A DNA stretch of 64,000 bases from an uncultured delta proteobacterium (lineage in GTDB: Bacteria > Myxococcota_A > Polyangia > Fen-1088): positions 1,312,001 to 1,376,000 of the forward strand of contig CAVYGB010000008.1 in the NCBI GenBank assembly GCA_963767925.1. The letters are read 5' to 3'. Position 1 is the stretch's first letter. Each line of letters starts with the position of its first letter. Position numbers and translations under genes: made by a program. Below, piece by piece: positions 4,991-52,842 of this stretch. Under the pieces are notes generated by a model. That model was not told the origin of the DNA and did not search any database. It saw only the letters and a list, made by a program, of their open reading frames with translations.

Positions 4991-5611
4991 TCAGGCCAGC
5001 AGCCGGTCGAGGTCCAGCTCGGCGAACGAGCGCACGACGAGATCGGCCTCCTCGATGGGGACCCGGGCCAGGGCGGGGTTCACGCGCAGGACGCGAAGGA
5101 TCCCCAGCGCGGCGCCGACCTTCATGTCGTGGATGGTGTCGCCCACCATCCGGCAGCTCTCGGCCGGGAGCCCGAGGCGGTCCAGCACCAGCCGGGTGGC
5201 GGCGGGGTCCGGCTTCGGCGGGACCTCGTCGTCGAGGGCGACGATGGCGGCAGGAGCGGGCAGGGTCAGGTCGGCGAAGGCCGCCCGGATGGTGGCCTGG
5301 CAGTTGCGGGTGTAGATGGCGAACGGAACCGCGCGGTCGCGCAGGCGGTCGAGGAGCACGCGGGCGTCCGGGTAGAAGGCGCCCCGGGTTACCCCCGCGG
5401 CCTCGTGCTCGGCGAGGATGGCAAGCATCCGGGCCCGCTCCGCGGGCGGAGCCTTCAGGAGGTGATCGGTGACCCGACCCGCCCGGCTCCTCTCGGCGCC
5501 GCCGAAGGCGGCCGGCAACTCGGCCACCAGGGCCCGCCAGAGCGCCTCGTAGTCGGTGGCCAGGTGAAACAGGGTCCCGTCGAAGTCGAAGATGATCGCT
5601 CGGCCGGTCAC
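4991..5611 (-). CDS. HAD-superfamily hydrolase (phosphoglycolate phosphatase-like)
   Basis: IIFDFDGTL, YTRN, PKPDP, MVGDTIHD; GTGA overlap with upstream stop. Confidence 0.88.
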   Translation of the reverse strand: MTGRAIIFDFDGTLFHLATDYEALWRALVAELPAAFGGAERSRAGRVTDHLLKAPPAERARMLAILAEHEAAGVTRGAFYPDARVLLDRLRDRAVPFAIYTRNCQATIRAAFADLTLPAPAAIVALDDEVPPKPDPAATRLVLDRLGLPAESCRMVGDTIHDMKVGAALGILRVLRVNPALARVPIEEADLVVRSFAELDLDRLLA

Positions 5612-6675
5612 GCCCGCTCGGCCTTCCAGTCCTCGCCCTTCACCAGGGTGAACCCCATGTCGATCATGCGCACCCACCACCAGTCGGCGGGGACCGGGTT
5701 GTAGGTCGGAAAGGCGGGGACCTCCTGGCCGAGGCCCAGCCGCAGGTAGGTGAGCGGGAAGTTGACCCCGCAGTGGGCGTAGAAGTTGCTCGTCGTGAAG
5801 AAGCGGCCGCAGTTGATCTCGGTGACCCGGGGCTGCCCCTGCGCGTTCTCCTTGAGGTCGACGCAGAAGACGCCGTGGGGAGCCGGGTCGGACGCCAGGA
5901 TGGCCCGGGTGGACAGCTCGTTGACGTCGTCCCGGTGGACCGTGCGAGCCACCGAGGGCGAAGAGCTCTGTCCACTCGGCGTGAGGTGCCCGAAGATGTA
6001 CTCCACCCGCTCCCGGGCTTGCGACACGACCAGGCGCCCCCGGTGCCAGAGGCTCTGGAAGGCGAACTCGCGCCCGGGCAGGAACTCGCTCACCATGAAG
6101 TCGCCCCAGCCGAGGTTGCGCATGGTCTTCCAGTAGTCGACCCAGGCGCGCGCGTGCTCGACCTTCTTGACCGGCAGGCTGGCCCGTCCGCCCGCGCCCC
6201 GGATGGCCCGCAGCCAGGCCTTCTCGTGACGAGAGAAGAGGGCGCCGAGGGCGGACTCCAGGTCGGCCTCGCTCTGGAGGAAATAGGCCTCCGGAACCGG
6301 CAGCCCCGCCTGCGACATGATGCGGTTGAATTCCATCTTGTCGGCGCACCGGCGCACGGTTTCGTCGGGCGGCAGGAAGGTCGTGGCTCCGATCTCGTGG
6401 CGCCTGCGGGAGATCACGTCGACCTCGACGTCGGGCTGTGCGTGGAGGAAGTCCACCTTCTCCCGCTCGATGATCCGGTTGAGGGCGTCGAGGTAGTCCG
6501 GTGAGTCGGCGCGGGGGACCAGGTAGTTGCGGTCGGTCCGCGTGAGCGGCAGGTGGTGGGGCTTGACGTCGGCCCCGACGATGTAGAGGGACTCTTCCGC
6601 CTGAGCCAGACGAAGAGCATCGACGAAATTGTGAGCAGCCGAGCCGCCCGCTCCTGTGACGAGAATGCGTTTCAT
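5608..6675 (-). CDS. ATP-grasp ligase (CarB-like fold, polysaccharide-cluster type)
   Basis: MKRILVTGAGG, CADK, SEFLPGREF, VTEINCGRF. Confidence 0.8.
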   Translation of the reverse strand: MKRILVTGAGGSAAHNFVDALRLAQAEESLYIVGADVKPHHLPLTRTDRNYLVPRADSPDYLDALNRIIEREKVDFLHAQPDVEVDVISRRRHEIGATTFLPPDETVRRCADKMEFNRIMSQAGLPVPEAYFLQSEADLESALGALFSRHEKAWLRAIRGAGGRASLPVKKVEHARAWVDYWKTMRNLGWGDFMVSEFLPGREFAFQSLWHRGRLVVSQARERVEYIFGHLTPSGQSSSPSVARTVHRDDVNELSTRAILASDPAPHGVFCVDLKENAQGQPRVTEINCGRFFTTSNFYAHCGVNFPLTYLRLGLGQEVPAFPTYNPVPADWWWVRMIDMGFTLVKGEDWKAERA

Positions 6676-7586
6676 GTTGTCTCGGTCGCTGTCTCCTCGA
6701 CCCCGGGGAAGTGCTCGACCGCCGGGCTGGTCAGCCACATGGCGACGAACGCTCCCCCCAGCAGGGCGAAGCCGGCCAATCCCAGCAGGGGGTTGAGGGT
6801 GAGCAAGGAGAGGACCATCAGGCCGGTCGAGGCGAGCAACAGCAGCAACGAGCTGCGATCCCGCAGGGGACCGATCGCGACCCGGCTGCCGACGATGCGC
6901 GCCATCTTGCCCAGGGTCTTCGGGATCTGCTTGTGCAGCACGATCGACGAGACCTCGCGGCCATAGCGGGAGGGGCTCGGCAGCAGGGCGAAGCGACAGC
7001 CGATCCGTCGGAACTCGGTCATCATGGTGTTCTCGAGATCGTAACCGGCGGCGATGGCGCCCAGGTCCATCTCCTCGAACACCCGGCGGCGGGCCAGCAG
7101 GTAGCCGTGCAACACGTCGCTCATGCCCCGGTAGCCAAGGATGATCTGCATGAGCGCGGACACGCCGAGGTTTCCCCAGTAGCGAAAGCGCGGCATGGTG
7201 TGCAGCGAGGCCTGGTGCAAGAAGCGCGAGCCCTTGGCCACCTCCAGATCGGGGTGATCCAGGAGCACCTGGCGAAACCGGGGGATGAGGCGCTCGTCAC
7301 ACTGGTTGTCGGAGCCGATGATTCCGATGGCCTCGACCTGGGGGTCGGCCAGGAGCGCCTGCAGCCCGGTGATCACCGCCGCCCCGACCCCTCGATTGCG
7401 CGGGTGGTGAACGGCTGTCACCCGGGGGCCGTGGCGGGTGGCCAGCTCGTCGGCGATGCGGGGCGTGGCGTCCCGGCTTCCGTCGTTGACGACGACCAGC
7501 CGTTCGACCAAGGGAAGCACACCCGCAACCGTCTCCGCCAGCAGGAGCTCTTCGTTGTAGGCCGGCATCACGAAGCCGATTCGCAT
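6672..7586 (-). CDS. Glycosyltransferase family 2, polyprenol-phosphate glycosyltransferase-like with C-terminal TM helices
   Basis: VMPAYNEE, VVNDGSRDAT, NRGVGAA, KGSRF; two C-terminal hydrophobic helices. Confidence 0.85.
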   Translation of the reverse strand: MRIGFVMPAYNEELLLAETVAGVLPLVERLVVVNDGSRDATPRIADELATRHGPRVTAVHHPRNRGVGAAVITGLQALLADPQVEAIGIIGSDNQCDERLIPRFRQVLLDHPDLEVAKGSRFLHQASLHTMPRFRYWGNLGVSALMQIILGYRGMSDVLHGYLLARRRVFEEMDLGAIAAGYDLENTMMTEFRRIGCRFALLPSPSRYGREVSSIVLHKQIPKTLGKMARIVGSRVAIGPLRDRSSLLLLLASTGLMVLSLLTLNPLLGLAGFALLGGAFVAMWLTSPAVEHFPGVEETATETT

Positions 7587-46201: not shown

Positions 46202-46812
46202 ATGATCGCCCACCTGCGCGGCCTGCTGGCCGAACGGGGCCCGGAGGCCGTCGTGATCGACGTGGGCGGGGTGGGCTACGCCGTCACCGTCACGGCGGCG
46301 GCGTTTCGCGCGCTGCCGGCGACGGGCAGCGAGGTACGGCTTTACACCTATACCCACGCCGTCCAGGACGGCCCCCTGCAGCTCTTCGGGTTCGTCGACC
46401 CCGACGAGCGGCGGCTGTTCGAGGCCCTGCTCTCGGTCCAGGGCGTGGGCCCGAAGGTGGCGGTGGCCATCCTCTCGGGTCTGGCGGTCGGTGATCTGGT
46501 CCGGGCCATCGCCGGAGGAGACATCACCCGGCTCACCCAGATCCGCGGGGTGGGGCGCAAGATCGCCGAGCGGCTCGCGGTCGAGCTGCGCGATCGGATC
46601 GCGGCCCTGGGGGTGGGCGGCCGCTCGGCCGAGCCCCTCCCGTCGCCCGGGGCGCGCGCGATCCCCCCGGCCGGCTGGGCGAGGTGCACGGGGCCCTCGT
46701 CGCGCTCGGGTACCGGCCGGCCGAGTTCGAGGGCCTGCTCGGCGGCCTCGACGCGGAACGGCCCACCGCCGACCTCATCAAGCAGGCCCTCGCCGGGCTC
46801 CGGAGAAAGTAG
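46202..46812 (+). CDS. ruvA: Holliday junction branch migration protein (frameshift near 46665)
   Basis: [47 protein letters not shown]-terminal ALVALGY..IKQAL in another frame. Confidence 0.95.
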
Positions 46813-47915
46813 TGGCCCGCAAACGACACGACGACGGCAGCGAGCCTGGCCCGCCCGGCGGAGGAGCGGCGGCCCCGCCCGATCGCCTCCTCGCCCCCCA
46901 GGCCACCCCCGGCCGCGACGAGGACGACGCCGCCCTCCGGCCGAAGACCTTCGCGGAGTTCATCGGCCAGCGCAAGGTGGCCGAAAACCTCGCGGTCTAC
47001 GTGACCGCCGCCAAGAAACGGAGCGGAACGCTCGATCACGTCCTGCTGTCGGGGCCGCCCGGCCTCGGCAAGACAACGCTCGCCCACGTGATCGCTCACG
47101 AGCTCGGGAGCGAGACGCGGGTGACCTCCGGACCGGCGCTCGAGCGGAAGGGCGACCTGGCCGGGATCCTGACCTCGCTCGGCCGCGGCGACGTGCTGTT
47201 CATCGACGAGATCCACCGGCTCAGCCCGGTCATCGAGGAGAGCCTGTATCCCGCCATGGAGGACTATCGGATCGAGATCGTGACCGGGGCGGGCGCGGGG
47301 GCCGCGGCCATCACCGTGCCGGTCGAGCACTTCACCCTCGTGGGCGCCACCACCCGCACCGGCCAGCTCACCTCGCCCCTGCTGTCGCGGTTCGGGATCG
47401 TCGAGCGGTTCGACTACTACGGGGCCGAGGAGCTCACCGCCATCGTGAAGCGTTCGGCCCGCCTGCTGGGCATCGTCATCGACGAGGACGGAGCGCGCGA
47501 GCTGGGGCGCCGGGCTCGGGGAACCCCCCGCATCGCCAACCGGCTGCTGCACCGGGTGCGCGACTTCGCGGAGGTGCGCGGCGACGGCCGCGTCACGGCT
47601 CCCGCTGCTGACTATGCCCTCCGGCGCCTCGAGATCGACGAGCTGGGGCTCGACGCCGGCGACCGGCGGATGCTGACGACCATGATCGAGCGCTACGATG
47701 GCGGGCCGGTCGGCATCGAGGCCCTCGCCGCCTCCCTGGCGGAGGATCGCGACACGCTGGAGTACGTCTATGAGCCTTTTCTCATCCAGGAGGGCTTTCT
47801 CATCCGCACGCCGCGTGGTCGGCAGGCCACGGTGAAGGCCTACCAGCACCTGCGCCTGCCGCCGCCGACGCGCCCGCCCGGCGGCCAGGGTGGTGGGCAG
47901 GGCAGCCTTTTCTGA
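46812..47915 (+). CDS. ruvB: Holliday junction branch migration helicase
   Basis: [56 protein letters not shown]. Confidence 0.97.
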
Positions 47916-47968
47916 ATTTCAGCGGGCTCGTGTCTGTAACAAACCTGGCTTTCCGTGATGTTGGAAAG

Positions 47969-47977
47969 TTATCCACA
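47969..47977 (+). promoter_or_regulatory. Consensus DnaA box TTATCCACA
   Basis: Exact match in an AT-richer intergenic region; function unproven. Confidence 0.45.
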
Positions 47978-48045
47978 GGCTCGCTCTTGTTGCTTTCGGT
48001 CATCCTGACGACCCGCCAGAGGACCACGCCCAGGGACCGACCAAA

Positions 48046-48078
48046 GGGCGACGACGGGGCGACGACGGGGCGACGACG
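48046..48078 (+). repeat. Three perfect tandem 11-bp repeats GGGCGACGACG with degenerate flanking copies
   Basis: Read directly from the intergenic sequence. Confidence 0.85.
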
Positions 48079-48310
48079 AGGCGGCCAAAGGCAACGACAC
48101 ACCGGACCGAAACGAAACTGCAGGCTCGGTGAAAACAAGCCGAGAAATGCGTGTTCCGGTCCCAATATCTAGTAAGGTGCGACAATGCAGCGGGCGCGGT
48201 GCCACCATGCGCTCAGTCGGCCCCATTTGTCGCTCCATGAGCCGAAAAAAGGGAGGCGCGATCTCGCGCCTTCGATTCGTTTGCGGCCCTGGACATGATG
48301 GGAGAGGTCG

Positions 48311-49687
48311 ATGAGCCTTCTTGATCGCCTGTTCCGGAGGGAAGGAGACGAGAAAGAGCCTGAAGCTGAAGGGCAAGCGCAACCGAACCGCACGACGAGG
48401 CCCCCCAACTCCGAGCAAAAGCCCTCGCGAGGTGCCATGGCAAATTCCAGCCCACACAACCGGACGGCGCCCGAGGCGGTGCGTCCGGTGCCTTCGATGC
48501 CCCGGCCGCAGACTCCCGCTGCTCCACCGCCGGTGACGCGGACCTCGGGTCCGCCGAGGGGCATCGCCCCGCTGGGCCTGGCGCGCCCCTGGTCGCAGCG
48601 CAAGCGGCAACAGCGCGAGGACTCCGGCGCCAACGCCATCGCCTCGTTCATCGAGAAGGCGGTCGACGAGCTCGGCGATCCGGTGATCGATCGCGCCCTC
48701 GACAGCCTCGTCGATCGGACCCCGGTCAACAGCCCGCGCCCCAGCCACGACGGGGTCTCGACGCCGGTCGACCTGGCCGCCGTGCAGGCAACCTACCAGG
48801 AGCTGGCGATCGAATATTGCGCCCCCGTCCGCAACGTCATGATCGAGATTGGCCGGGCCGAGCCGCCGTTGAGCGTGCTCGACTTCGTGCGGCCCGCCAT
48901 CGAATGGCTGCAGGGCACCGCCCGGAAGATGGACCTGACGGAGCTGGCCGGATGCCTCGAGAGCTTCAGCGCGGCGCTGGCGGCCGCGTCACGGGCGACC
49001 CAGTCCACCATCCAGGGTGAGCTGAAGTGGAACCTGCAGCGGGCCTACGCGCCTCTGGTGGTTCACCTGCCCCAGGCCTTCGACATCGAGGGGGAGCGCG
49101 AGCGGCGCGAGCACATCATCCTCCGGTCGCTGCTGCTGCTGGTTCCCGGGGTCGACGCCATGGTCGTGGATCGGATCCTGGCCGCCGGCCTCAACACCCT
49201 GCAGACGCTGTCCAGGGCGCGCGCCGAGGAGCTGGCCGCCGTCGCGGGGCTGGATCGCGACCTGGCCGAGGGCATCGTGGAGGCGCTCCGCGCTGAACGC
49301 ACCGCCGCCGGCTTGAGCCTGGCGGTGGCCGACGTCTCCGAGGAGAAGAAACGCCTCAAGGCCCTCGTGACGAAGCTGTCGAGCGAGCACGAGGCTTTCG
49401 AGCGGGCCGGCCGGGGCTGGACCGAGGCGCACCGCGAGGAGAAGCGGCGCTTCCGCCAGGAGCGAGAGCTCACCTTCTTGCGGGTCAAGGTTGCGCTGGC
49501 CCGGCTCGGGGACGTCGACCGCATCGTCCGGCTCGAGAGGTTGCCTTTCGGCAGCAAGATCCAGGAGCTCGAGACGCAGATGCGGCTCGCGGCCAACGGC
49601 ACCGGGAGCGGGAGCGGGAGCGGGCGGGCTTCCGCCAGCCCACCGCCGCGGCCGGCGAGCGGATCTACGCGCCAGCGCGATACCTGA
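48311..49687 (+). CDS. Hypothetical protein with tandem helix-hairpin-helix motifs and coiled-coil C-terminus
   Basis: GGAGAGG RBS; Pro-rich N-terminus; LLLVPGVDAMVVDRILAAGL..EELAAVAGLDRDLAEGIVEAL. Confidence 0.75.
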   Translation: MSLLDRLFRREGDEKEPEAEGQAQPNRTTRPPNSEQKPSRGAMANSSPHNRTAPEAVRPVPSMPRPQTPAAPPPVTRTSGPPRGIAPLGLARPWSQRKRQQREDSGANAIASFIEKAVDELGDPVIDRALDSLVDRTPVNSPRPSHDGVSTPVDLAAVQATYQELAIEYCAPVRNVMIEIGRAEPPLSVLDFVRPAIEWLQGTARKMDLTELAGCLESFSAALAAASRATQSTIQGELKWNLQRAYAPLVVHLPQAFDIEGERERREHIILRSLLLLVPGVDAMVVDRILAAGLNTLQTLSRARAEELAAVAGLDRDLAEGIVEALRAERTAAGLSLAVADVSEEKKRLKALVTKLSSEHEAFERAGRGWTEAHREEKRRFRQERELTFLRVKVALARLGDVDRIVRLERLPFGSKIQELETQMRLAANGTGSGSGSGRASASPPPRPASGSTRQRDT

Positions 49688-49705
49688 ACGGAGGCCATTG
49701 GAATC

Positions 49706-50965
49706 ATGCCCGACCTGACACGCGATCAACTCCTGCAGAAGCTCAAGCGCGGCGAAAAACTCGAACGCGTCGATCTGCGCGGGCTGGATCTCTCGAAGAC
49801 CACCCTGGCGGGGGCCGCGCTGGCCCGCTCCGACCTGGATGGCGCCAACCTCGAAGGGGCCAATCTGCAGAAGGCCCGCCTGAAGAACGCCACGTTGCGC
49901 GAGGCGTTCCTGGTGGGCGCCGATCTCACGGGCGCGGTGCTCGAGAACGCCGATCTGGAGGGGGCCAAGCTCGACCGGGCCAACCTGTCAGGCGCCAACC
50001 TGGTCCGCGCCAACCTGGAAGGGGCCAGCATGCAGGGCGCGAACCTGAGCGGCGCCTGCCTCAGCTTCGCCCAGATCGCCTCGGCCACGCTCACGGGAGC
50101 GGACCTGCGTGGCGCGGTCCTCACCCACGCCGACCTCGAGCAGACCTGCCTGCGGGGGGCCAAGGCGGTGGGAGCCAACTTCTCGGGGGCCAGCCTGGAG
50201 TCGGCGGCCATCGAGCAGGGCGACTTCAGCGTCGCCGTGTTCAGCGACGCCAAGATGGCGAACCTGAAGGGGACCGGGGCCAGGCTCGGCGGAGCGTCGC
50301 TGCTGCGGGCGGACCTGACGAAGGCGGTCTTGCCGAAGGCCGACCTGCGAGAGGTCGACGCCCGGATGGCGAACTTCACCGGCGCGATCCTCACCGATGC
50401 CCGCCTCACGGGGGCCAAGATCTTCGGCCTGCGCGGCACCGGCGCTCCCCTGGGGAACGTCGAGGCGGAGTGGATCGATGCCAGCACGGCCGGCGACGGG
50501 GCCAAGCGGATCAGCAACGGCGAGATCAGCGCCTTGCTCAGCGGCGGCAGCCAGGGCGACCGCCAGGTGTCCGGGGGCCCCGGCCACCGCTATTTCGGCA
50601 AGGGCGACGTCCTCCGCAACGCCTCCCTCGCCTTCGAGCGGGGGGCCAACGTCGAGATCGACAGCTTCTTCCAGAACTGCTCCATCACCCTCGGCGAGGG
50701 CACCCAGCTCGTGCTCGGCAAAGACGGCGTGCTCGCCGACTGCAAGATCTCCGGTGGGGGAAAGATCGTCATCCACGGCCAGTTCTTCGAGCGCGAGAGC
50801 CCCGGCATCATCGGTCCCAGTGAGCTCACGGTGTCGGCCGACGGAGCGCTGGTGGCGGCGGTTGCCCAGAACGAGTCGCTCACCCGCTTCGCCTTCGAGA
50901 AGGGCTGCAAGCTCCGCGTCAGGATCCTCAAGAACGCGAACGTGAGCGCGAAAGGAAAGGTATGA
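49706..50965 (+). CDS. Pentapeptide-repeat protein with C-terminal bactofilin-like domain
   Basis: About 240 aa of A(N/D)LxG repeats; C-terminal YFGKGDVLRNASLAF..VEIDS..LVLGKDGVL..IVIHG..FEKGCKL follows the bactofilin pattern. Confidence 0.8.
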   Translation: MPDLTRDQLLQKLKRGEKLERVDLRGLDLSKTTLAGAALARSDLDGANLEGANLQKARLKNATLREAFLVGADLTGAVLENADLEGAKLDRANLSGANLVRANLEGASMQGANLSGACLSFAQIASATLTGADLRGAVLTHADLEQTCLRGAKAVGANFSGASLESAAIEQGDFSVAVFSDAKMANLKGTGARLGGASLLRADLTKAVLPKADLREVDARMANFTGAILTDARLTGAKIFGLRGTGAPLGNVEAEWIDASTAGDGAKRISNGEISALLSGGSQGDRQVSGGPGHRYFGKGDVLRNASLAFERGANVEIDSFFQNCSITLGEGTQLVLGKDGVLADCKISGGGKIVIHGQFFERESPGIIGPSELTVSADGALVAAVAQNESLTRFAFEKGCKLRVRILKNANVSAKGKV

Positions 50966-51474
50966 GCGACAGCACGAACGGCCGATCCGGGAAGCGAACG
51001 CTCGTCGACGAGGGCACGGAGCTCAAAGGCAGCGTGAAGTCGACCTGTCCGGTCGTCGTGATGGGTCGGGTCGAAGGTGATATCACCGGGCCGTCGGTCG
51101 AGATCGCGGAGAAGGGGACGGTCATCGGGAAGGTGAAGGCGACCCAGTTCACCTCGCACGGAGAGATGTTCGGAGAGATCGAGGCCGACAGCGTCGAGCT
51201 GTCTGGCAAGGTCCGGGACGGCACCGTCATCCGCGCGCGTTCGCTCGACATCAAGGTGAACCGCCAGGGCCCTCGGGAGCCCATCCAGTTCGGCGACTGC
51301 GAGCTGTTCATCGGCGACGAGCCCGACAAGGCCGCGGCCATCGCCCGGGCCACCGCGGCCAACCCGGAGCTCCGCAGCGAAGGTGCCGCGATGACCACCG
51401 AGGCGCCGGATCCCCGGCAGCTCAAGCGGGCCAAGGAAGCGGCCGCCTCCCTCGAACCGGCCGGCAAGAGCTGA
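50962..51474 (+). CDS. Bactofilin (polymer-forming cytoskeletal protein)
   Basis: TLVDEGTELKGSV..VVVMGRVEGDI..VEIAEKGTVIGKVKA..GEMFGEIEADSVEL; ATGA overlap. Confidence 0.88.
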   Translation: MSDSTNGRSGKRTLVDEGTELKGSVKSTCPVVVMGRVEGDITGPSVEIAEKGTVIGKVKATQFTSHGEMFGEIEADSVELSGKVRDGTVIRARSLDIKVNRQGPREPIQFGDCELFIGDEPDKAAAIARATAANPELRSEGAAMTTEAPDPRQLKRAKEAAASLEPAGKS

Positions 51475-51517
51475 CGAGACCGGTGCGGCCGGGCGCGGGA
51501 GGGCGCCCCGCAGTCCG

Positions 51518-52138
51518 TTATTGCCCCGCGATGGCCTTGAGGTAACCCTCGAGGCACTTGCGCTCGGCGTCGTTGACCGGGTCGAGCTTCGGCTCGAACC
51601 CGGCCTGAGGCGGCATGGTGATGCCGGTGTTCGAGGCGCCCGGGGGACAAACCGGCGGGCTGGCCGCCTGGACCTTCGCCCAGATCACGCTCTCCTGCCA
51701 GGCGGTCGAGTTGATCATCTTGCCCGGCTTGCAGGAGACGATCGGCGTCTTGTCCCGCATGCGCCGCCACACCTCGGCGGTCTGAAGGTCGCTCCAGATG
51801 TTCGCCGCTGCGATCACGTGGCAAGACATACCGGCCGCGCATCGGTTCGAGAAGAACTTGTCCATCTCGCCCAGGTTCGGCCACTGGGGGCAATCCGCGA
51901 CAGGCGTCGCCGCGTTCACGCCACCCGCGCCGCCCGTCGGGTCCCCGCCGCCGGTTCCGCCGGCCCCACCGGCGCCACCCACACTGCCCGCGCCCTCGCT
52001 GCAGATGGCCTGCCACTCGGGACTCTGGTCGCAAGGCAACTCGCCCGGCTGACAGGAGAGCCAACAGGCCGCCGACAACACGGCGACCGTGGCCCCCGCG
52101 CCGAGGCCACGCTTCTGTCGCAGTGGGGCGGTAGTCAT
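51518..52138 (-). CDS. Lipoprotein, putative atypical c-type cytochrome (CX5CH), paralog 2
   Basis: Lipobox WLSC, Gly-rich linker, RCAAGMSCH, ITMPP. Confidence 0.65.
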   Translation of the reverse strand: MTTAPLRQKRGLGAGATVAVLSAACWLSCQPGELPCDQSPEWQAICSEGAGSVGGAGGAGGTGGGDPTGGAGGVNAATPVADCPQWPNLGEMDKFFSNRCAAGMSCHVIAAANIWSDLQTAEVWRRMRDKTPIVSCKPGKMINSTAWQESVIWAKVQAASPPVCPPGASNTGITMPPQAGFEPKLDPVNDAERKCLEGYLKAIAGQ

Positions 52139-52221: not shown

Positions 52222-52842
52222 CTATTTTCCGGTGACAGCTTTCAGGAAGCCTTCGAGACAGTTGAGCTCGGCCTGGTTGAGCGCGGCCATCTTGGGCTCG
52301 TAGGTCATCTGGGGCGGCATGCTCAGGCCCGCGGCGCCGGTTCCACCGGGGCAGGTAGCCGGGGACTGAACCTTCAGCCAGAGCACGCTGTCCCGCCAGT
52401 TGCCCCCGTTGGCGAGCTTGGAGCCGGCGCAGGAGACCTTGGCGTTCGAGGAGGCATCGGTGATGAGCCTCTGCCACATGCCGGTCTTCTGCATGTCCGT
52501 CCAGACCGCGCCGGTGGCGTGGCAGGTCGTGTTCACGCCACAACGCATGGCGAAGAACTTGTCCATGTCGCCCAGTGTCGGCCACTGCGCGCAGTTCGCG
52601 ACCGGCGTGGCGGCGTTCACCGCACCGCCCATTGGCGCAGGGGAAGGTGCGGGGGCAGGAGCGGGGGACGGGGCAGATCCACCCGACCCTCCGGTGGCCT
52701 GGTCGCAGACCGCTCTCCACTGTTCGTCCTGGTCACAAGGAAGCTCGCCCGGCTGGCAGGACAGCCAGATGGCGCTTCCGAAGATAAGGGCACCCACCAC
52801 CGTCCCGACACCCGCCGTGCGCTGCTGAGAGGCATGCTTCAT
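52222..52842 (-). CDS. Lipoprotein, putative atypical c-type cytochrome (CX5CH), paralog 1
   Basis: Lipobox WLSC, Pro/Ala linker, RCGVNTTCH, LSMPP; GGGAG RBS-like sequence. Confidence 0.65.
   Translation of the reverse strand: MKHASQQRTAGVGTVVGALIFGSAIWLSCQPGELPCDQDEQWRAVCDQATGGSGGSAPSPAPAPAPSPAPMGGAVNAATPVANCAQWPTLGDMDKFFAMRCGVNTTCHATGAVWTDMQKTGMWQRLITDASSNAKVSCAGSKLANGGNWRDSVLWLKVQSPATCPGGTGAAGLSMPPQMTYEPKMAALNQAELNCLEGFLKAVTGK

Follow-up and report, generated by a model that had tools for sequence, protein, structure and literature searches.

In an uncultured delta proteobacterium of the class Polyangia, three adjacent genes at 48311..51474 of a 64,000-nucleotide stretch of contig CAVYGB010000008.1 (the window, which here means the whole stretch that was analysed) very probably act as one functional unit. 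What this unit does can be read, with about even chances of being right, as a self-contained cytoskeletal module, in which gene 3 provides a bactofilin polymer, gene 2 docks onto this polymer end-on, and gene 1 serves as adaptor or anchor, the contacts between the proteins being deduced from synteny, gene fusions and fold. All three genes and all of their parts described below lie on the plus strand. Gene 1 (48311..49687) is an open reading frame (ORF) of 458 amino acids (aa) that encodes a putative adaptor with the N-terminal peptide MSLLDRLF, a Pro-rich disordered spacer (to about aa 105) and a helical region with helix-hairpin-helix (HhH) motifs; gene 2 (49706..50965, 419 aa) encodes a pentapeptide-repeat protein with a bactofilin-like domain at the C-terminus, and gene 3 (50962..51474, 170 aa) a divergent bactofilin. 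Gene 1 ends with TGA and is followed by a spacer of 18 nt (49688..49705) that includes GGAGG ahead of the ATG of gene 2, and at the junction GGAAAGGTATGA the ATG of gene 3 shares 4 nt (ATGA) with the TGA stop of gene 2, with GGAAAGG just 5' of it. Three co-oriented genes with an 18-bp gap and an ATGA overlap had already been described in an earlier interpretation of the bare DNA (here called the sequence-only reading), and the ORF list and the junction sequences match this description exactly.

Co-conservation of the three genes in the Myxococcota, which the sequence-only reading had named as a check on its proposal, was found in synteny as well as in occurrence. A search of genome contigs for loci related to the gene 2 domain gave 206 pattern matches, 180 of which encode a relative, and the best 80 of these were used, which represent 77 distinct loci. 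According to their titles, nearly all of them are from metagenome-assembled genomes (MAGs) of Polyangia, Polyangiaceae, Kofleriaceae, Haliangiales, Labilithrix or Sorangium. By tblastn, a gene 3-type bactofilin lies directly downstream of gene 2 in 76 of the 77 loci, the remaining one (L048) ending 71 nt past the match, and a gene 1 homologue lies upstream of gene 2 in 73, with less than 560 nt of upstream sequence in three of the others (L019, L036, L046). The stop of gene 2 and the start of gene 3 overlap in 42 of the 76 pairs, by exactly 4 nt in 31 of them, and the largest spacing is 98 nt. In four loci (L012, L015, L021, L024), one gene 1 is followed by two gene 2-gene 3 pairs in tandem, the second gene 2 match being near 5044-6283 and the second bactofilin near 5567-6722 in each; this suggests that gene 2 and gene 3 together make up the core unit, and that one gene 1 may serve two pairs. 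The flanks are not conserved: the largest flanking gene family covers 5 of the 77 loci, the dapF/secG/tpiA flank is common only to L001, and ruvB is in none of the flanks (about 1-3 kb on the upstream side). The ruvCAB genes and dapF were considered as conserved neighbours of the triad and rejected, since they are not kept across the 77 loci; the ruvCAB neighbourhood is specific to the window's genome, and the flank of the nearest relative is cut. In Polyangia, the triad is a self-contained unit that moves as a block.

Across 301 genomes sampled evenly from the phylum, six (G000, G104, G139, G214, G224, G244) have the gene 2 domain, and the gene 3-type bactofilin (E <= 1e-20) and full-length gene 1 (E <= 1e-113) were found in the same six, the genes being adjacent in each; nine other genomes of this sample had only weak matches to the HhH region of gene 1, in a search whose first look was stricter. 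Of 61 genomes sampled in the phylum, 59 have ordinary bactofilins. As the genomes are related to each other, the six of 301 are to be taken as a pattern and not as a statistical test. As far as sampled, the triad is restricted to a part of the class Polyangia (Myxococcota). The window's genome contains a second triad on another contig (C2, about 1684318-1687021; L082:5318-8022, minus strand), with a gene 1 paralogue of 288 aa that keeps the HhH motifs and the helical hairpin without the four-helix bundle (34 % identity), a pentapeptide protein of 414 aa as gene 2 paralogue, which shares the C-terminal domain (58 % identity to gene 2), and a bactofilin of 202 aa. Just upstream of this second triad there is a Ser/Thr kinase with a PEGA domain (L082:8247-10121, minus strand).

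Gene 3 belongs to the bactofilins as a divergent member. Its core (about aa 13-120; 50998..51321) matches the Pfam family Bactofilin (PF04519) at residues 13-98 with E 7.4e-13 and 49 bits against a cut-off of 27.9 (50.1 bits in a six-frame scan of the genome), a search of PDB sequences with its profile found BacA (2n3d, E 3.4e-7) and TtBac (6ria, E 3.9e-7), and hhalign related the gene 3 clade to the canonical bactofilins of the phylum with a probability of 95 %. In the last winding, an end motif F110-G-x-C-E-L..G-D is invariant across the clade (alignment A3). An N-terminal membrane-targeting peptide is typical of bactofilins, though not obligatory. The N-terminus of gene 3 reads MSDSTNGRSGKR, and the consensus of its clade is MSxxxxxxxxKRTLVEEG, which has no hydrophobic residue at position 2; neither the window protein nor this consensus has a peptide of the type MFSKKKK, which the available part of a study on BacA gives as the membrane-targeting consensus and as the anchor in most bactofilins (PMC12448750). 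Compared with canonical bactofilins such as BacA of Caulobacter crescentus (2n3d) and TtBac of Thermus thermophilus (6ria, 6rib), gene 3 differs by the missing peptide and by the lowest score among 126 PF04519 matches in the phylum sample (50 bits versus 56-106). The sequence-only reading had taken gene 3 as a canonical bactofilin.

The C-terminal domain of gene 2 (aa 295-410; 50588..50935) is, to judge from its sequence, a distinct and well-conserved family of its own. A word-indexed protein search with residues 270-419 gave 52 proteins, 50 of which have pentapeptide Pfam domains and none of which has a useful name. The domain alignment A2, consisting of P0001 and 12 typed stretches (13 of the 52 proteins), has 36 columns that are invariant among the 13 sequences, and the motif string that had been quoted for the C-terminus in the sequence-only reading is found in the translation within this strongly conserved domain. 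With the A2 profile, 171 proteins were found at E <= 0.001 among 1.84 billion cluster representatives; among the 150 of these matches listed, most full-length proteins have the domain at their C-terminal end or close to it, and in fused forms it stands before the bactofilin domain. Short representatives (154-186 aa) with the domain start inside the linker or the repeat region and may be truncated gene calls. A metagenomic protein of 3037 aa (P0311), in which 8 stretches match a 45-residue segment of the domain profile (E 9.6e-11), may be an unrelated giant beta-solenoid repeat protein.

AlphaFold2 modelled A2 as a beta-helix of sixteen short strands, three per turn, with a mean predicted local distance difference test (pLDDT) of 86 and values of 94-97 in the core, and with windings 4 and 5 connected by a loop of 11 residues (ERxSPGIxG) that is conserved. 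When this model was compared with known structures, bactofilins were the top 2 of 48,161 chains, and in a second ranking the top 3 of 238 chains, with whole-chain coverage and a root-mean-square deviation (rmsd) of 1.4-2.3 Å. The three solved bactofilin entries outrank all other solenoids in the candidate list, and pentapeptide proteins are well behind; the ESM Atlas gave only generic solenoid clusters for the domain, with scores of 0.85 or less. Because the coverage is whole-chain at low rmsd and every solved bactofilin entry stands above every other solenoid, the match is persuasive, and it is likely, judging from the model, that the domain has a bactofilin-type fold. The outcome of the modelling and profile check that had been suggested for this C-terminus is divided: the domain models as a bactofilin-type beta-helix with solved bactofilins as best matches, but it has no match to Pfam Bactofilin, and the profile-profile comparisons are weak (probabilities of 1.9 and 23 %). 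The domain is not a recognisable member of PF04519, and its likeness to bactofilins is one of fold; from canonical bactofilins it differs also by the ERxSPGIxG loop and by its fusion behind a pentapeptide rod. A weak Pfam Bactofilin match in P0056 was considered as evidence for the C-terminal domain and rejected, as it comes from a fragment of a gene 3 orthologue that is fused by a frameshift.

Within the domain, the first winding (conservation 0.80) and the last one (0.69) are the most conserved, with 0.47-0.60 for the inner ones, as end-on contacts would predict; the conserved residues at the ends belong to a winding with RYFG..GDVL and to one with F395 and F397. That the C-terminal domain of gene 2 would contact gene 3 end-on is suggested by this pattern together with the bactofilin-like fold, the translational coupling, the fusions, and the fact that gene 3 was never found without gene 2 in the sample, and a contact through the helix ends has about an even chance of being correct. 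The same evidence from fold, synteny and fusions would also fit gene 2 as a regulator instead of a structural co-subunit, in that its single bactofilin-like domain caps or nucleates the end of a gene 3 protofilament and thereby sets length or position, with the rod as steric block or targeting handle. It would agree with this that the two end windings differ in conservation (0.80 versus 0.69), that the domain's N-terminal end is always joined to the linker and the bulky rod, which could block one end, and that translational coupling suggests an approximately fixed stoichiometry and not a substoichiometric client. However, capping and co-polymerisation fit the present evidence alike, for an equimolar coupled synthesis a co-polymer is no worse an explanation than a cap, and canonical bactofilins with N-terminal tails still use both ends, as far as the accessible part of the preprint by Deng et al. 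describes it (bioRxiv 10.1101/617639). A regulatory gene 2 is regarded as unlikely.

The fusions come from a Pfam scan of 17 representatives that were chosen for unusual length, long or short, from the 150 matches listed. Five of them (P0191, P0244, P0225, P0232, P0209) combine gene 2 and gene 3 in one predicted protein, with repeats, gene 2 domain and Pfam Bactofilin domain, and P0244 is colinear with the whole of gene 2 and then, after a joint of about 20 residues, with gene 3 from its own Met. Two others (P0215, P0224) combine gene 1 and gene 2, with HHH_5, repeats and gene 2 domain, and in the locus L034 gene 1 and gene 2 are within a single ORF of 966 aa. As some apparent fusions are not real, they count as supportive and not as decisive. 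An open frame of 838 aa at gene 2 of genome G104 was considered as a gene 1-gene 2 fusion and rejected, because gene 1 is in a different frame.

The existence of gene 1-gene 2 fusions would also be compatible with the C-terminal domain of gene 2 being a self-association module, so that gene 2 makes a polymer or oligomer of its own and gene 3 and gene 1 are linked to it only indirectly, for example by gene 1 bridging two assemblies. The domain is after all a distinct conserved family (171 representatives) without detectable sequence affinity to gene 3, and such a bridge could be formed by any of several modules of gene 1 that are candidates for protein binding (the four-helix bundle, the (HhH)2 domain of the heterodimerising ERCC1-XPF type, and the hairpin). 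Yet there are gene 2-gene 3 pairs without a gene 1 of their own (L002 and the second pairs of L012, L015, L021 and L024), gene 2 is fused with gene 3 no less often than with gene 1 (5 versus 2 cases among the 17 scanned), and the gene 3 clade never occurs without gene 2 in the 301-genome sample, which makes a self-associating gene 2 rather improbable and leaves the direct docking of gene 2 to gene 3 as the preferred reading.

The N-terminal part of gene 2 (about aa 20-250; 49763..50455) consists of tandem repeats of the A(D/N)LXX type, in accordance with the approximately 240 aa of pentapeptide repeats noted before; Pfam Pentapeptide (PF00805) matches in 8 stretches with E 3.7e-52 and 173.8 bits against a cut-off of 20.2. 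The repeats are followed by a linker (aa 251-294; 50456..50587) with a conserved W-x-D-x-S...GDG..R motif, in which W256, D258, S260 and R268 are invariant in alignment A1 (21 of the 52 proteins found with residues 270-419). The best partial matches among NCBIfam models are of the Alr5209, HetL and PipB types, and the Alr5209 model is passed marginally (127.9 versus 125) by summing 4 repeat stretches. Pentapeptide-repeat proteins such as MfpA, Qnr, AlbG and HetL dimerise via a C-terminal helix, and Qnr and MfpA have a strongly electronegative, DNA-like surface. Gene 2 shares with them the pentapeptide-repeat solenoid, but it carries instead a 120-aa bactofilin-like domain at the C-terminus, it is far below the NCBIfam cut-offs of Qnr (60.6 versus 240 bits) and MfpA (65.7 versus 360) and also below that of HetL (119.7 versus 260), and the net charge of its repeat domain is near zero (+2 over 250 residues, and -7 to +2 across 21 homologues; these are net charges only and not a map of the surface).

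The sequence-only reading had pointed out that pentapeptide repeats can mimic DNA and bind gyrase, and had suggested that DNA or topoisomerases may be tethered through the HhH adaptor. For the former, the low Qnr and MfpA scores and the near-neutral repeat domain speak against it, and a link to gyrase or DNA mimicry is, on sequence grounds, very unlikely. The latter found no support, either, since the (HhH)2 domain of gene 1 has a net charge of -4 (-5 to +4 across 26 homologues); as it is not basic, DNA tethering by gene 1 is only a possibility, and (HhH)2 domains mediate also protein-protein contacts, as in ERCC1-XPF, which is one of the structural matches of gene 1. On the whole, the earlier interpretation was largely right in the anatomy of the three proteins, while its functional part is unsupported. 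One could go further and regard the likeness to bactofilins as convergent or as a modelling artefact and the operon as a non-cytoskeletal, pentapeptide-centred one, for example for topoisomerase protection of the MfpA/Qnr kind, with an HhH protein that binds DNA and a bactofilin that merely localises the system. The pentapeptide repeats are indeed the strongest sequence signal of the operon, an (HhH)2 domain is present, ruvC, ruvA and ruvB are directly upstream in the window, and no sequence method places the C-terminal domain among bactofilins. But ruvCAB is present in none of the 77 loci within the flanks covered, the Qnr and MfpA models are far below their cut-offs, the repeat domain is near neutral and the (HhH)2 domains are mostly slightly acidic, and the structural match is specific to bactofilins over other solenoids and covers the whole chain, so that there is but a slight chance for this explanation, and a bactofilin-based module is preferred.

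Gene 1 encodes a protein of several modules. Most of aa 10-122 have a pLDDT below 50 in the AlphaFold model, with disorder before about aa 105, whereas aa 150-430 are above 90. The ordered part begins with a four-helix bundle (aa 152-256; 48764..49078), followed by an (HhH)2 domain (aa 258-334; 49082..49312) and by a C-terminal helical hairpin or coiled coil (aa 342-432; 49334..49606), which comprises helices at 342-367, 372-399, 402-410 and 413-432 and has conserved GWS and LARLGE..LERLPF motifs. In alignment A4 (26 sequences, namely the window protein and orthologues from 25 of the 73 loci having the gene), W370, R382, R385, G400 and F413 are conserved. The tandem HhH motifs and the coiled coil that had been recognised before were recovered, as HHH_5 matches residues 274-327 above its cut-off (E 1.7e-6, 28.8 versus 27 bits) and the model contains the hairpin behind the HhH part; the Pfam scan at E <= 1 gave HhH-type families only and no ParB-like family. 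The two HhH motifs form a five-helix (HhH)2 domain, which resembles the (HhH)2 domains of RadA/Rad51 (N-terminal), UvrC (C-terminal), ERCC1 and DisA in sequence (RadA, E 1.2e-6) as well as in fold (rmsd 1.7-1.9 Å to known (HhH)2 domains, including ERCC1-XPF). In contrast to these proteins, gene 1 has no recombinase, nuclease or cyclase domain attached, and with its charge of -4 the DNA binding is uncertain. Foldseek and VIA-align found nothing for gene 1 beyond these local (HhH)2 matches and generic helical bundles, the ESM Atlas contains only its own Myxococcota clusters of hypothetical proteins, and all gene 1 homologues found carry the name hypothetical protein.

The public gene call starts gene 1 at Met43, which gives 416 aa. 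The start at 48311 is favoured here, because close orthologues have 455-462 aa and because MSLLDR matches a common N-terminal motif: 39 of the 73 gene 1 loci have an MSIFSR-like motif of the type M[SG]x[FL..][SDT][RK] at this place. The first eight residues, MSLLDRLF (48311..48334), are of a hydrophobic-plus-basic kind and could be a membrane-targeting peptide. Nine of the 73 loci are cut at the 5' end, and one has both the motif and a zinc ribbon (CxxC...CxxC). Such zinc ribbons open gene 1 for example in L043, L049, L051, L055, L060 and L064, and gene 2 for example in P0046, P0048, P0051, P0047 and P0049, and from the sequences it looks as if the N-terminal zinc ribbon of either gene were an interchangeable targeting element.

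Taken together as a mechanism, the divergent bactofilin of gene 3 would make the polymer, and gene 2 would be its obligate partner, whose cryptic bactofilin-like beta-helix docks end-on to gene 3 subunits, either as a subunit of a co-polymer or as an end cap. The filament would thereby carry as decoration a rigid rod of pentapeptide repeats, about 230 residues long, that could serve as a protein-binding platform. Gene 1 is a candidate for an adaptor, because it has three modules of protein-binding type and a flexible spacer that ends in an anchor-like peptide, which gene 3 lacks. Its helical hairpin and its four-helix bundle would bind the gene 2-gene 3 assembly, its (HhH)2 domain would bind DNA or another protein, and the tip of its Pro-rich spacer, which is a hydrophobic-basic peptide or in some lineages a zinc ribbon, would anchor or target the assembly, most plausibly at the membrane, so that the peptide of gene 1 would replace the membrane-targeting peptide that is absent from gene 3. 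The anchoring by gene 1 is a tentative and rather doubtful part of this mechanism. There is a precedent for such a division of labour in BacA and PbpC, in that an overproduced client protein can take over from BacA's membrane-targeting peptide, according to the available part of the report (PMC12448750); an MSIFSR-like peptide at gene 1 and a gene 3 without one would be the same arrangement. Differences from that system are that gene 1 is not a cell-wall enzyme, that the peptides are alike in composition only, and that a zinc ribbon takes this place in 15 of the 73 orthologues. A more far-reaching version, in which an obligate two-component bactofilin filament arrays pentapeptide rods regularly along the polymer, is tethered to chromosome or membrane by the HhH adaptor, and as a platform positions or sequesters DNA-handling enzymes such as topoisomerases, is improbable; if true, both a heteropolymeric, decorated bactofilin and a pentapeptide-repeat protein with the cellular role of a cytoskeletal appendage would be firsts.

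A number of observations weigh against the cytoskeletal module as outlined. Most of them concern the relation of the gene 2 domain to bactofilins. Its model was built on a shallow alignment of 13 sequences, and with Foldseek it had no match in the PDB at E <= 0.001, where generic solenoids were listed and BacA (2n3d) came only at rank 42 with E 1.2. The last 150 residues of gene 2 alone have no Pfam Bactofilin match at E <= 10, the six-frame PF04519 scan of the window's genome (E <= 1) gives six bactofilin genes and not the gene 2 domain, a search of PDB sequences with the domain profile (E <= 10) yields no bactofilin, the domain compared with gene 3 by BLASTP has an E of 1.2, and among the 17 Pfam-scanned of the 150 listed domain relatives only the fused forms have a bactofilin domain, which there lies downstream of the stretch that was matched. 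In hhalign, the comparison of domain and bactofilin reached a probability of 1.9 % with shallow profiles, and with deeper profiles (for the domain P0001 and 74 of 86 near-complete representatives, for the canonical bactofilins 28 of 30 loci from other genomes of the phylum) 23 %. Sequence homology of the domain to bactofilins is thus not established. The deeper comparison nevertheless had a score of 26.3 (P 8.7e-4) with 73 columns in register (domain 16-99 versus bactofilin 30-102), which is above all 24 controls, namely reversed profiles (19.4 and 20.0), the domain versus the pentapeptide region (19.0), the bactofilin profile versus the pentapeptide region (16.8), and 20 column shuffles (17.2 or less), and this can be taken as a hint, not as a proof, of a distant homology.

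Other difficulties arise from the genes themselves. In L002, a second copy within the MAG of L001, the gene 2-gene 3 pair is preceded by 3.1 kb of sequence that has no gene 1, and where a second pair follows in tandem, both pairs share a single gene 1. The peptide at the N-terminus of gene 1 resembles a membrane-targeting peptide in composition only, it is swapped for a zinc ribbon in 15 of 73 loci, and in 11 of 73 there is neither. All fused forms are metagenomic predictions, some of which could have been made by sequencing errors; P0056 is a chimera caused by a frameshift, and in L069 the frame changes.

With respect to known bactofilin scaffolds, the BacNOP-PadC system of Myxococcus xanthus has to be considered. 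PadC has a ParB-like domain and binds ParA. What is alike, judging from the part of the publication that was accessible (PMC5703909), is the combination of a myxobacterial bactofilin polymer with a dedicated operon-encoded adaptor that positions other components. Gene 1 differs from PadC in that it has only HhH-type Pfam matches at E <= 1 and no ParB-like domain, the partner is here a pentapeptide-repeat protein with a bactofilin-like domain of its own, and the module is found in Polyangia, while 295 of the 301 genomes sampled across the phylum gave no sign of it. Elsewhere in the window's genome, there are three tandem canonical bactofilin genes (C8:1764879-1765903, minus strand; 80-86 bits each), which are reminiscent of the bacNOP arrangement, and a fourth canonical bactofilin (C10:1181563-1181850).

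A precedent for bactofilin-like beta-helices that are seen mainly via AlphaFold, and also for two such domains per chain, is the halofilin HalA of Haloferax volcanii, as described in the available part of the paper (PMC11459167), and the gene 2-gene 3 fusions (P0244 and others) follow the same tandem logic. The subdomains of HalA reach Pfam Bactofilin in HHpred, with 89 % probability for the weaker one (PMC11459167, same part), whereas the gene 2 domain reaches only 23 % versus the bactofilin profile, and HalA is archaeal and, as far as that part goes, without pentapeptide repeats. The module of the window differs from known bactofilin scaffolds in that the partner has a cryptic bactofilin-like domain of its own, in that this partner is a pentapeptide-repeat protein, and in that a third protein, the HhH adaptor, is co-inherited.

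Bactofilins are widespread polymers, the clients of which are known in only few species, and pentapeptide-repeat proteins are a very large family with few known cellular roles. Gene 3 is a bactofilin that was never seen without two specific partners in the sampled genomes, one of these partners being bactofilin-like only in three dimensions; if this likeness is true, the bactofilin superfamily reaches past its sequence models, as halofilins did in archaea. The triad would be a system of three defined proteins on which one can study how partners are recruited to bactofilin polymers, cap them or assemble with them, the fixed attachment to a cytoskeletal polymer suggests a concrete job for one clade of pentapeptide-repeat proteins, and all this is confined to the little-studied and mostly uncultured Polyangia. 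The statement of the sequence-only reading that no characterised pentapeptide-bactofilin fusion was known to it agrees with the literature searched, in which no relevant paper links a bactofilin with a pentapeptide repeat, and nothing relevant was among the matches listed for bactofilin with Sorangium, Haliangium or Polyangia, or with gene neighbourhood.

The G+C content of the triad region is about 68-70 % and the same as in its surroundings. The genes ruvC, ruvA and ruvB, which lie directly upstream of gene 1, are on the same strand; the ruvA frame (46202-47915) is open for 469 codons and overlaps the ruvB frame, and the longest ORF of ruvB begins about 148 codons before the RuvB_N domain, but at such a G+C content, genes are shorter than their longest ORFs suggest. 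In a scan of 47700-51800, no promoter-like site was found, and the only terminator-like site, in the interval between ruvB and gene 1 (48252-48273), is a G+C-rich stem-loop of 9 bp that can be read on either strand; the 2 sites counted (one stem-loop, both strands) are no excess over a shuffle mean of 2.4. With the defence-system models of PADLOC, no family was found at E <= 0.1 for the proteins of gene 1, gene 2 or gene 3. One soil-metagenome DNA run contains a tenth of the sampled words. Downstream of gene 3, on the opposite strand, follow two paralogous ORFs and then dapF. These adjoining ORFs of 206 aa (51518-52138 and 52222-52842, minus strand) have no Pfam family at E <= 0.001, and each has an N-terminal hydrophobic stretch, the sequence SCQPGELPCDQ and a Gly- or Pro-rich segment; both also adjoin the triad in the nearest relative, L001.

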